Assembly: GCA_965224085.1 (NCBI GenBank) | Contig: CBDCYI010000011.1 | Location: forward strand, 128,001-192,000 | Direction of reading: 5' to 3' | DNA length: 64,000 nucleotides | From: Candidatus Marinacidobacterales bacterium | GTDB lineage: Bacteria; Acidobacteriota; Vicinamibacteria; Marinacidobacterales; SMYC01 | Shown here: positions 62,668 to 64,000 of the stretch, one piece after another | Position numbering within the stretch: the first letter of the stretch is position 1 | How the letters are laid out: each line of letters begins with the position of its first letter | The notes under the pieces: model-generated | What the model was told of the DNA's origin: nothing | Databases searched by the model: none | What the model saw: the letters and a program-made list of their open reading frames with translations, nothing else | Position numbers and translations under genes: made by a program

Positions 62668-62783
62668 AAAGTCGAAAACGACGTATAGGGTCTGACGCCT
62701 GCCCGGTGCCGGAAGGTTAAAAGGAGGGGTTAGCTTCGGCGAAGCTCTGAATTGAAGCCCCGGTAAACGGCGGCCGTAACTAT

Positions 62784-63101
62784 GAAGAAGGTCTGTTAGG
62801 ACAACCGTTGTAGTTACGAGATCAAAATCTGGCTATATGCTGGGACATCCGAGTATCTTCCACTACTCTCTGTTTCACTGGGGGGTAACAATGTGTGAAG
62901 TGCGGACAATCAGCAGGAAACCCAGTCCATCGGGGATCCTCAGAGACTGTACGCCAGACCACCCTCATAAATTCCATTGAGGAAGTGGATGAGACAGTCC
63001 GATCTTCATGGCGACATGAAGAGCACGGCAGAAATGACCGTGCCTCGTGAAACAAATCAGCGCGAAAGTATCGTCACGGTTTCACGGAGTAACAAAGAAT
63101 G
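62784..63101 (+). ncRNA. Group I intron at 23S position 1917 (318 nt, no ORF)
   Basis: Exon ends in U and intron ends in G. IGS GTAGTTACG pairs with the 5' exon and ACCGTT with the 3' exon. Core TGCTGG / AATCAGCAGG / TCAGAGACTG / ACAGTCC. Confidence 0.93.
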
Positions 63102-63115
63102 AACGGTCCTAAGGT

Positions 63116-63434
63116 TGTTAACGCAGCCCCCGGCGGCCGCGAGGTCGACGGTGCATCTGGCTATATGCTGGAAAGTCTGAGTATCTGGTGGTACTCGTTC
63201 GACATCCGCTTAAACTCTTTAGCGGGTGGCGAGCAGTGAAAATCCAACCAGTGCAGACAATCAGCAGGGAAGTTCAGTTGTGAAATTGGCAGCTGTAACC
63301 CCTCAGAGACTGCACGCCGGACATCCTGGCACTTCAGGATGAAGATACAGTCCGTACCTCATGGCGACATGGGGAGGTCGGCAGAAATGACCGACCCGCT
63401 TCACCAGCACTTTGGTGAAGAGGTAACAGAATAG
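63116..63434 (+). ncRNA. Group I intron at 23S position 1931 (319 nt, no ORF)
   Basis: U| boundary and terminal G. Same P/Q/R/S core (ATATGCTGG, AATCAGCAGG, CCTCAGAGACTG, GATACAGTCC). Confidence 0.92.
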
Positions 63435-63454
63435 AGCGAAATTCCTTGTCGGGT

Positions 63455-64000
63455 AAACAGAAAATTGCCCCGGGCGGGAGTGATCCCGTCCAGCAAACCG
63501 GCTCAAATCGGTGAAACCCTAGCGGCGCTTTAGCAGGTGCGCCGCGGGCAATACCGAGGGTAAGATCGCAGCGATCCAAATTGGGTCGCGGCTTTCCCCG
63601 TAACGACTCAGGGATTGAGACCCCTGGATGGTTTCTTCCTCGGAAGACTCCATAATACGCCGGCCCTGGTCCTTTTCTGGTGAATGTCGATTCCTACATC
63701 TCCGGATTCGTAGATGGAGAACGCTGCTTTTTGCGTGTCGTTCCAGCCCAGTCGGAGACATCGACTTGGTTGGGAAGCGCGTCCGAGCTTCTCGGTCAGC
63801 CAGAATGGTGACCGAGCCGAACTCCTATACGAGATTCAACAACGCTGGGGGTGTGGTTTCATTCGACCCGATCGGTCGGACAAGACTCTCAAATACGAGG
63901 TGCGGAACATTCACGACTTGGTGGAGAAAGTTCTCCCCCATTTCGAGTCGTTCCCGCTCTTGTCATCGAAACAAACCGACATAACGCTGTTTCGCGAGAT
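63455..64000 (+). ncRNA. Group I intron at 23S position 1951 (partial)
   Basis: Follows CGGGT, with IGS GCCC. Different core (AAATCGGTG / AATACCGAG / GTAACGACT); contains an endonuclease ORF. Confidence 0.85.
63680..64000 (+). pseudogene. Single-motif LAGLIDADG homing endonuclease, frameshifted, partial
   Basis: VNVDSYISGFVDGERCF, then after one extra T in a T5 run (63728-63732) CVSFQPSRRHRLGWEARPSFSVSQNGDRAELLYEIQQRWGCGFIRPDRSDKTLKYEVR...LPHFESFPLLSSKQ. Confidence 0.88.

Follow-up and report, generated by a model that had tools for sequence, protein, structure and literature searches.

Layout of the interrupted 23S rRNA gene

At the 3' end of the window, by which we mean the whole stretch of 64,000 nucleotides that was analysed, lies a 23S rRNA gene that is interrupted three times in helix 69-71, a functional centre of the ribosome. 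The part of the gene beyond the window is given in the coordinates of locus L004, where position 2747 is window position 60746 and position 6179 is the window-equivalent 64178. The exons and introns are as follows.

60746..62783, + strand: 23S rRNA exon 1, E. coli-equivalent up to U1917
62784..63101, + strand: intron 1, group I, site L1917, 318 nt (RF00028 55.1 bits, E 4.8e-12, match at 62774-63021)
63102..63115, + strand: micro-exon 2, 14 nt, exact match to rrlH 1918-1931
63116..63434, + strand: intron 2, group I, site L1931, 319 nt (RF00028 70.7 bits, E 9.8e-17, match at 63106-63374)
63435..63454, + strand: micro-exon 3, 20 nt, exact match to rrlH 1932-1951
63455..64000 and 178 nt beyond the window, to L004 6179, + strand: intron 3, IA type, site L1951, 724 nt
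after L004 6179: exon 4, resuming with AAGTTCCGACC, exact match to rrlH 1952-1973

The site numbers were obtained by locating each exon piece in E. coli K-12 rrlH as an exact string match. Exon 1, the start of which is the onset of the Rfam LSU_rRNA_bacteria match (L004 2747), ends with ...GGCCGTAACTAT at window position 62783, its final 12 nt being rrlH 1906-1917, while micro-exon 2 reads AACGGTCCTAAGGT and micro-exon 3 reads AGCGAAATTCCTTGTCGGGT. The alignment to E. coli 23S thus places the exon pieces at 1906-1917, 1918-1931, 1932-1951 and 1952-1973, and the cuts after U1917, U1931 and U1951 fall exactly on the classic rDNA insertion sites L1917, L1931 and L1951, in agreement with the sequence-only reading that helix 69-71 is cut three times, each time after U. 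When the four pieces are joined, 103 of the 114 positions are identical to E. coli 1878-1991, without a gap. The introns end in ATG, TAG and GTG, respectively, giving the terminal G (omega G) in all three, and a P1 with the U opposite a G at the 5' splice site is also present in all three. It is noted that the Rfam LSU model aligned end to end over the interrupted gene (L004 2747-7131, model positions 1-2925, 2719.7 bits), so that the earlier expectation that the introns would defeat gene callers does not hold for Infernal.

Introns 1 and 2

Both introns that are complete in the window score above the gathering score of RF00028, the Rfam group I model, which is 50 bits; this bears out the claim that both have a recognisable catalytic core. 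They are the only two matches when the whole genome is compared with RF00028. Their guides are located as follows.

62804..62817, + strand: guide of intron 1, ACCGTT (P10) followed directly by GTAGTTAC (P1)
63122..63128, + strand: guide of intron 2, CGC (P10), spacer A, GCC (P1), from the Rfam alignment

Intron 1 contains no + strand ORF of 60 aa or more and has homologues in 10 relatives at 77-90% identity. Its guide ACCGTT pairs with AACGGT of exon 2 to form P10, and GTAGTTAC pairs with GTAACTAT of exon 1 to form P1, with a G opposite U1917. Based on the Rfam alignment and the lineage comparison, the P1 has 8 bp, GUAACUAU with GUAGUUAC, and the guide core CCGTTGTAGTTAC is kept in all 11 L1917 introns of the lineage despite their differing P1 loops.

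Intron 2 also has no ORF, carries a P2 hairpin with a GCGA loop, and has homologues in G010, G002 and G023 at 80-85% identity. In its guide, CGC pairs with GCG of exon 3 and GCC pairs with GGU of exon 2, with a G opposite U1931. The full P1 consists of the exon GGU followed by the intron UGU, against GCAGCC, that is, the exon pairs are extended by the intron pairs UGU/GCA, and these intron-side pairs have both sides changed in G023 (UAC/GUA), which is covariation. With just three exon base pairs (GGU), the 5' splice site of intron 2 is weakly defined. That introns 1 and 2 are recent duplicates of each other is ruled out, as the stretch that they have in common is only a 53-nt core with 83% identity.

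Intron 3 and its endonuclease gene

The proposed search with an Infernal group I model thus bore out introns 1 and 2 but not intron 3, for which RF00028 gave no match at E<=10 even with permissive filters; likewise, at the gathering score it matched no L1951 intron in the relatives' loci that were searched. The following elements of intron 3 were located.

63465..63470, + strand: guide of intron 3, TTGCCC, pairing with GGGT of exon 3 and the intron's first AA
63680..64000, continuing past the window end, + strand: decayed single-motif LAGLIDADG endonuclease gene, in loop L8 of intron 3

The P1 of intron 3 has 6 pairs, formed by the exon GGGU and the intron AA with UUGCCC, with a G opposite U1951, and is invariant in all 11 sequences compared. 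The fold was drawn by hand, comprising P1-P9 with P7.1/P7.2 and the P3/P7 pseudoknot and amounting to 69 pairs, and was counted on 11 ORF-less homologues with at least four phylum-level labels. In this count, 97.4% of the cells are paired, compared with 35-43% in six slid controls, a figure that is inflated by drawing and counting the fold on the same sequences. The compensatory changes are less affected by this: 32 of the 69 pairs are changed on both sides, compared with 12.9 in shuffles, and none of 500 shuffles reaches 32. In this comparative fold, P7.1 has 5 pairs, of which 3 are changed on both sides, and P7.2 has 4 pairs, of which 2 are so changed; intron 3 shows the feature of subgroup IA, two extra helices (P7.1 and P7.2) separating P7 from the 3' strand of P3. 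On this modelled fold, we therefore read intron 3 as a member of a group I subgroup for which RF00028 gives poor coverage. The more precise label IA3 may be applied by analogy, following the label that the literature, as quoted in PMC10136302, gives to the Coxiella L1951 intron.

The endonuclease gene starts with GTG here and with ATG in the relatives. When its three frames are compared with the open genes in G013 and G010, a +1 frameshift is located in the T5 run at 63728-63732. Upstream of the shift and in a different frame is the motif SGFVDGE; where the relatives have GEG, GER is read here, and the same comparison finds in this gene no intact LAGLIDADG_1 frame that includes the motif helix. 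The remnant ORF extends from 63714 past the window end (L004 5715-6140, 141 aa), with its final codons overlapping P8 and J8/7. PF00961 (LAGLIDADG_1) gives 59 bits for the 141-aa remnant (cut-off 23.1), over profile positions 11-102 only, and 79.9 bits for the 152-aa protein of G013, and the PDB meganuclease matches to the endonuclease reach E 1e-36. The frameshift region is covered in a public contig over L004 5492-6164 with 0 differences and 0 gaps. The gene is thus found in several states: open in G013 (152 aa); open in G010 as a shorter version, lacking four of the G013 residues and having an earlier stop; frameshifted in the present genome (G000); and mostly lost in G002, where the intron is 343 nt.

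Occupancy in relatives and other bacteria

Among the 11 relatives that were parsed, all three sites are occupied in 2, L1917 and L1951 in 1, L1917 and L1931 in 3, L1917 only in 4, and L1931 and L1951 in 1. The two with all three introns, G010 and G002, belong to the same family and are single-contig genomes; G001 and G003, of the same genus, gave no match whatever. This mosaic occupancy fits repeated gain and loss.

In the species-representative genomes, at least 12 further triples (L041, L042, L043, L056, L063, L067, L068, L074, L099, L112, L121 and L128) and at least 36 L1917+L1931 doubles are present among the 119 loci listed, the triples carrying labels of five groups above the order level. 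These counts leave out the 71 of the 119 listed loci that do not have all four exon anchors in order, probably because the 16-mer matched by chance outside 23S, the tile ended at 8 kb, or the anchors are divergent. Rfam models run on slices of L063, L041 and L112 show the LSU context in all three, with 2 inserts above the RF00028 cut-off in L063, 1 in L041 and 0 in L112. Of 400 further genomes sampled from the phylum, 1 contains the 16-mer that marks the co-occupancy of L1917 and L1931, as does this genome; the count is not a frequency because many of the sampled genomes have no assembled rRNA. Judging from the sequences, the layout with three introns is found again in relatives and in uncultured bacteria from several further phyla. 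The novelty that the sequence-only reading had attached to the triple, together with its implied rarity, is lost with these 2 of 11 relatives and at least 12 of the 119 listed loci, and the database survey of co-occupancy, which it had named as what could remove the novelty, does remove it. In the literature searches we found no paper describing the triple-bearing database sequences.

Expected splicing of the three introns and alternative explanations

The earlier claim was of group I introns at all three sites, L1917, L1931 and L1951, which leave micro-exons 14 and 20 nt long. In accordance with it, our reading is that the gene very probably carries three separate group I introns, each with its own guide and each expected to self-excise independently. 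Each guide would form P1 by pairing with the final bases of the exon upstream, the U being opposite G, and P10 by pairing with the first bases of the exon downstream; each intron would then excise itself by the usual two transesterifications, so that an unbroken helix 69-71 would be restored. The guide pairings support the claim that each micro-exon provides the P10 for one intron and the P1 for the next: exon 2 pairs through AACGGU with the guide of intron 1 and through GGU with that of intron 2, and exon 3 through GCG with the guide of intron 2 and through GGGU with that of intron 3. Within each micro-exon the predicted P10 and P1 stretches do not overlap, and the three guides differ from one another; together, this should make inclusion of the exons likelier than their skipping. 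As introns 1 and 2 are ribozymes without an ORF and intron 3 is, on its modelled fold, an IA-type ribozyme with a frameshifted endonuclease gene, the elements look like mobile introns at a late stage that are now mostly inherited vertically.

Among the sequencing runs recorded as RNA, none contains more than 0.19 of the sampled words, which is about the share of the conserved exon part. Four runs were compared with L004 2747-7131. In run X20, of no recorded kind and from the same sample as X9, exon contigs identical to this 23S have depths of about 780-1490, and the introns are represented by one contig of depth 3 with 7 differences and are otherwise uncovered; such gaps in contig cover carry no weight. 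Two joints were considered as candidates for splicing and rejected: the joint of 5455 to 6180 was seen in all four runs, DNA-like ones included, and therefore comes from intron-less community members rather than from splicing of intron 3; a contig joining 4784 to 5436 has a variant exon 2 and therefore comes from another organism. None of the contigs of the four runs examined is evidence of splicing in this organism.

The first alternative is that the introns are not independent but have a fixed order or cooperate as ribozymes, with regulated or frequent exon skipping throttling ribosome production. Skipping has been reported for tandem group I introns with exons of 23 nt (Twort) and 34 nt (Coxiella), as summarised in PMC10136302, and the micro-exons here are shorter than in both of these cases. 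Moreover, the beginning of exon 3 (AGCG) could, by eye, make four pairs with the P10 guide of intron 1 as well, and therefore some skipping of exon 2 is possible. Against this, there is the absence of overlap between P10 and P1 stretches in either micro-exon, and the guides differ, introns 1 and 2 being alike over just their 53-nt core; in an engineered system, skipping was suppressed when the splice-site recognition elements were distinct (PMC10136302). The relatives show every pairwise combination and L1917 alone, and therefore no intron needs another to be present. We thus regard non-independence as improbable. We give equally little credence to the more specific proposal that micro-exons of 14 and 20 nt bar simultaneous folding or docking, resulting in a constrained order and a measurable fraction of exon-skipped, dead 23S, with the cluster acting as a brake. 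If this proposal were true, the intron cluster would, in these slow-growing soil bacteria, be a checkpoint on the production of ribosomes and not neutral baggage.

The second alternative, which we consider slightly less probable still, is that the inserts are not spliced, being kept in the rRNA or cut out without ligation to leave a fragmented 23S, or that the gene is dead. An unspliced L1931 intron has reportedly been claimed in Simkania. Simkania is listed in Table 1 of PMC1995217. The short P1 of intron 2 and the broken endonuclease, or possibly maturase, gene also speak for this alternative. Yet no other 23S gene was found in the genome, and the inserts sit in a functional centre. The U before the cut, the terminal G, the guide and the core are kept in all three introns, and the compensatory substitutions seen across phyla point to the ribozyme folds being under selection. 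The L1917 and L1951 introns of Coxiella are, in addition, reported to be self-splicing (by a title cited in PMC11270868 and the introduction of PMC10136302).

The last alternative concerns the assembly. The genome is a draft in 12 contigs and is about 95% complete. Ribosomal RNA operons are often mis-assembled in draft genomes. The 952-nt 3' part of the 23S gene has one match place in the genome and is thus single-copy, and a public contig of 764 nt is L004 4758-5521 with 0 differences, spanning intron 1, exon 2, intron 2 and exon 3 into intron 3; two further public contigs carry on through intron 3 into exon 4, and the run holding these contigs may be the source sample itself. With a single 23S copy and one contig through both micro-exons, the collapse of operon copies, which the sequence-only reading had named as a possible refutation, is therefore not what is seen. 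As the same inserts are also contiguous in the single-contig genomes G010 and G002 and in at least 12 loci of other groups, it is extremely improbable that the triple is an artefact merging introns of different operon copies or strains.

Implications

The locus is a real, ordinary further example of a known arrangement. Two practical points follow. Such genes will cause trouble for rRNA gene callers, probes and primers that take helix 69-71 to be unbroken, and RF00028 misses the whole L1951 (IA-type) family seen here, so that such introns stay unannotated. Biologically, the lineage forms a natural series with none, one, two and three introns and with the endonuclease intact, frameshifted and deleted, a series in which the cycle of gain, decay and loss of homing introns could be studied, as could the ways in which tandem ribozymes avoid exon skipping at very short exons. 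Neither the practical nor the biological points are new in kind.

Comparison with known systems

The systems below are compared as far as the cited portions of the papers describe them. In Synechococcus sp. C9, the gene for LSU rRNA has group I introns at sites L1917, L1931 and L2593 (Haugen et al. 2007, PMC1995217). Like the present gene, it is thus a bacterial 23S gene interrupted by three group I introns, and the filling of L1917 and L1931 gives the same 14-nt micro-exon. Its endonucleases likewise have a single LAGLIDADG motif, and their ORFs extend into core helices. By contrast, its third intron is at L2593 rather than L1951, and all three of its introns have full-length endonuclease genes, whereas here two introns have none and one has a frameshifted gene.

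In the 23S gene of Coxiella burnetii, introns at L1917 and L1951 flank a 34-bp exon (summarised in PMC10136302), so that the same outer two sites are filled. The Coxiella L1951 intron has 720 nt and an endonuclease of 157 aa (Table 1, PMC1995217), compared with 724 nt for the intron here, and it is called IA3, which agrees with the P7.1/P7.2 fold obtained here. The difference is that the 34-nt exon is split again here by the L1931 intron.

Phage Twort orf142, with three group I introns, a 23-nt exon and alternative exon skipping (PMC10136302), resembles the present gene in having three such introns in one gene and a very short internal exon. It is, however, a phage protein-coding gene with two near-identical IA2 introns, whereas the gene here is an rRNA gene with three dissimilar introns.

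In the 23S genes of CPR bacteria, inserts encoding LAGLIDADG_1 are concentrated at positions 1917, 1931 and 1952, among others (J Bacteriol 2024, PMC11270868), where 1952 is the same place as L1951 here, and many of these genes have multiple inserts, up to 16 per gene. That survey is of CPR, and insert frequencies are far lower in non-CPR bacteria (PMC11270868). Among the database triples, that of L063 is alike in detail, having two ORF-less introns followed by an endonuclease-bearing L1951 intron and two RF00028 matches, with its L1951 intron 70% identical to intron 3 over 685 nt.

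rRNA operon, intron boundaries and contiguity of the gene

The window (G000:C11:128001-192000) lies on a contig that extends further, and the rRNA operon at its end was followed in L004, the stretch of the studied genome covering the window end and the downstream region (G000:C11:186000-204000), with the window coordinate being equal to the L004 coordinate plus 57999. The features are as follows.

Features of the operon region
Window 58633-60192: 16S, in the rRNA operon at the window end
Window 60369-60442 and 60459-60531: two tRNA genes, between 16S and 23S
Window 60746: start of 23S; the gene crosses the window end
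To window 62783: end of exon 1, its last 12 nt being E. coli rrlH 1906-1917
Window 62784-63101: intron 1 (site L1917), 318 nt
Window 63102-63115: exon 2, 14 nt, E. coli rrlH 1918-1931
Window 63116-63434: intron 2 (site L1931), 319 nt
Window 63435-63454: exon 3, 20 nt, E. coli rrlH 1932-1951
Window 63455 to L004 6179 (window-equivalent 64178): intron 3 (site L1951), 724 nt
After L004 6179: start of exon 4, its first 22 nt being E. coli rrlH 1952-1973
Loop L8 of intron 3: single-motif LAGLIDADG gene, its 3' end overlapping P8 and J8/7
L004 7430-9288 (window-equivalent 65429-67287, beyond the window), minus strand: group II intron

The bacterial LSU model of Rfam is covered over its full length at L004 2747-7131 (2719.7 bits), followed by 5S, and since this span is 4385 nt, the 23S gene is about 1.4 kb too long. 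The tabulated exon matches to rrlH of E. coli K-12, the reference for the site numbering, are exact, U precedes all three cuts and G terminates all three introns. Thus, the sites L1917, L1931 and L1951 and the micro-exons of 14 and 20 nt proposed by the sequence-only reading are correct, its observation being right in every checkable detail. When the four exon pieces are joined, 103 of 114 positions are identical to E. coli 1878-1991, with no gap. Note also that removing the three introns leaves a 23S of about 3024 nt, which exceeds the 2904 nt of E. coli by about 120 nt; extra stretches are seen near model positions 283-331 and 583 (Rfam alignment, window 60746-62783), and these are probably ordinary expansion segments.

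An assembly artefact is a very unlikely origin of the triple. Only a single place in the genome matches the 3'-terminal 952 nt of the gene; a 764-nt contig of a public run is exactly L004 4758-5521, giving an unbroken path that begins in exon 1, crosses the two micro-exons and ends in intron 3, and two further public contigs carry on to exon 4; and the contiguous triple also occurs in two relatives with single-contig genomes.

The group II intron, which appears complete from its sequence, lies downstream of the 5S gene on the other strand, separated from it by about 40 nt: group-II-D1D4-6 is matched at L004 9065-9288 (140.9 bits) and domain V/VI (RF00029) at L004 7430-7500 (53.2 bits), both with Rfam, and a 531-aa ORF with RVT_1 (134.3 bits) is located inside it at L004 7520-9115.

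Group I identity and a proposed fold of intron 3

With RF00028, the Rfam group I intron model (gathering score 50), intron 1 gives 55.1 bits (E 4.8e-12) and intron 2 gives 70.7 bits (E 9.8e-17), these being the only matches in the whole genome. The covariance model therefore upholds the proposed group I identity for introns 1 and 2 but leaves intron 3 unmatched, as even a threshold of E<=10 yields nothing for it with Rfam.

For intron 3, a fold was written by hand on an alignment of 11 L1951 introns without an ORF. Nine of them came from pattern-scan loci labelled Gemmatimonadota, Gammaproteobacteria and Chthonomonas, and the genus and the order of the studied genome contributed one each. The fold comprises P1, P2 (with a GNRA loop), P3, P4, P5/P5a, P6, P7, P7.1, P7.2, P8, P9.0 and P9, with P7 pseudoknotted with P3 and an inner hairpin within P8. 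Standard pairs fill 97.4% of the cells, a percentage flattered by the use of the same sequences to draw the fold, versus 35-43% with the partners slid by 1-3 columns. Both-side changes occur in 32 of the 69 pairs, as compared to a shuffle mean of 12.9, with none of 500 shuffles reaching 32, and the compensatory changes in P2, P5a, P7.1, P8, P9 and P9.0 can hardly be accounted for in another way. From this comparative fold and these changes we conclude that intron 3 is in all probability a true group I intron, belonging to a type poorly covered by RF00028. The presence of P7.1 and P7.2 between P7 and P3' places it in subgroup IA; the L1951 intron of Coxiella has been called IA3 (PMC10136302).

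It is noted that RF00028 gives no above-cut-off match to L1951 IA-type introns in the window, in the slices of the scan loci L063, L041 and L112 or, at the gathering score, in the loci of relatives (L007 and L016 among them). Such introns will stay unannotated in pipelines relying on this model.

Guide pairings and predicted splicing

The guide of intron 1, ACCGTT-GTAGTTAC, is located at window 62804-62817. Its second part pairs with GUAACUAU of exon 1 (8 bp, with U1917 opposite G) and its first part pairs with AACGGU of exon 2; in the lineage, the guide core CCGTTGTAGTTAC is kept in 11 of 11 L1917 introns despite differing P1 loops. In intron 2, GCC pairs with GGU of exon 2, with U1931 opposite G, the P1 being lengthened by three intron pairs that covary in the relative G023, and CGC is positioned for pairing with GCG of exon 3. 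In intron 3, UUGCCC pairs with GGGU of exon 3 and the intron's own first two bases. These pairings bear out the earlier expectation that each micro-exon supplies P10 to one intron and P1 to the next. The two uses do not overlap, occupying 1918-1923 and 1929-1931 in exon 2 and 1933-1935 and 1948-1951 in exon 3.

The guides of the three introns differ from one another, and in engineered tandem introns skipping is suppressed by distinct splice-site recognition elements (PMC10136302). Slight skipping of exon 2 would be conceivable, because by eye the P10 guide of intron 1 can also pair at four positions with the beginning of exon 3. The mechanism would almost certainly be three independent self-splicing events with three different internal guides.

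Decay of the endonuclease gene

No plus-strand ORF of at least 60 aa is present in introns 1 and 2. The endonuclease gene of intron 3 is open in the relative G013, with 152 aa from ATG, a PF00961 score of 79.9 bits and matches to PDB meganucleases down to E 1e-36, and also in G010, where it is shorter, with four residues of the G013 protein missing and an earlier stop. In the studied genome the gene has GTG in place of ATG, the motif reads GER versus GEG in the relatives, and a +1 frameshift occurs at a T5 run (window 63728-63732), so that only a motif-less remnant of 141 aa (PF00961, 59 bits) is open. An error of a single assembly would be an unlikely source of the frameshift, because a public-run contig covers L004 5492-6164 with 0 differences and 0 gaps, although this run may be the source sample. 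In G002, a member of the same genus, the gene is mostly deleted and the L1951 intron is 343 nt. Such a state of the endonuclease is as expected late in the homing cycle.

Distribution among relatives and beyond

Querying the 101 genomes of the relatives sample with the 1395 nt that span introns 1 to 3 gave matches in 17, the studied genome included; the same-genus G001 and G003 gave no match to this query. Eleven relatives' loci were parsed by exon anchors, with five weaker matches left out (G004, G018, G019, G033, G060).

Occupied sites in the parsed relatives
L1917, L1931 and L1951: G010, G002
L1917 and L1951: G013
L1917 and L1931: G023, G009, G012
L1917 only: G016, G006, G005, G017
L1931 and L1951: G021

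The L1931 inserts fall into two unrelated intron lineages within one family or order (loci L004, L006, L007, L009 versus L010, L015, L016), one being ORF-less, about 300 nt, with the guide CGC-A-GCC and the other endonuclease-bearing, about 630 nt, with the guide CGCT-A-GCCTTAG. Across 598 nt, the endonuclease-bearing type has 79% identity with the L1931 intron of the Gemmatimonadota-labelled L042, a similarity that suggests transfer between phyla.

Species-representative genomes were scanned for exon 2 flanked by G and non-A, a mark of L1917 and L1931 co-occupancy, and at least 119 loci match. Among the 119 matches listed, 48 gave all four exon anchors in order, the other 71 being left uncounted; in 36 of the 48 only L1917 and L1931 are filled, and in 12 all three sites are occupied. 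These 12 listed triples are labelled Gammaproteobacteria (8) and Solirubrobacterales, Gemmatimonadota, Thermodesulfovibrionales and Chthonomonas (1 each). Their L1917 inserts are all significantly similar to intron 1 (12 of 12, BLAST), and 9 of their 12 L1951 inserts were included in the covariation alignment. In all three slices searched with Rfam the 23S context was confirmed, with two above-cut-off group I matches in L063, one in L041 and none in L112. L063 has the same architecture as the window, and the two L1951 introns share 70% identity across 685 nt that take in the endonuclease gene. Of 400 other genomes sampled evenly from the window's own phylum, 1 contained the marker 16-mer, a denominator that is unreliable because many such genomes are without assembled rRNA. 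The triple is thus present in the studied genome but is not unique to it, being shared by two relatives and at least 12 scan loci.

Two further observations on the scan loci are noted. In L041 (5203-5892), the Solirubrobacterales-labelled triple, 113 nt of the L1917 intron recur in the L1931 intron with 96% identity, which looks like recombination or gene conversion between adjoining introns. At least 12 L1931 inserts end in A or C, not G, in the anchor-based parse (L021, L039, L040, L056, L057, L074, L076, L092, L099, L121, L123, L132); either they are without the canonical terminal G or the boundary is off by a base or two. One Coxiella intron is reportedly without the canonical terminal G.

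Comparison with known systems

In the limited library of literature searched, no paper was found on a bacterial gene occupied at all three sites, nor on any 23S group I intron in Acidobacteria. In Coxiella, the L1917 and L1951 introns are said to lie on either side of a 34-bp exon. Synechococcus sp. C9 has introns at L1917, L1931 and L2593 (Haugen et al. 2007, PMC1995217), and the same paper tabulates introns of Thermotoga at L1917 and L1931, of Simkania at L1931 and of Coxiella at L1951, the last with 720 nt; a diatom plastid rrl has L1917 and L1931 (PMC11019260); exon skipping is reported for Coxiella and phage Twort (PMC10136302); and in a CPR survey LAGLIDADG-bearing inserts cluster at 1917, 1931, 1952 and other sites, with many multi-insert genes (PMC11270868). 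The arrangement studied here adds one more case to a layout that recurs at three classic homing sites.
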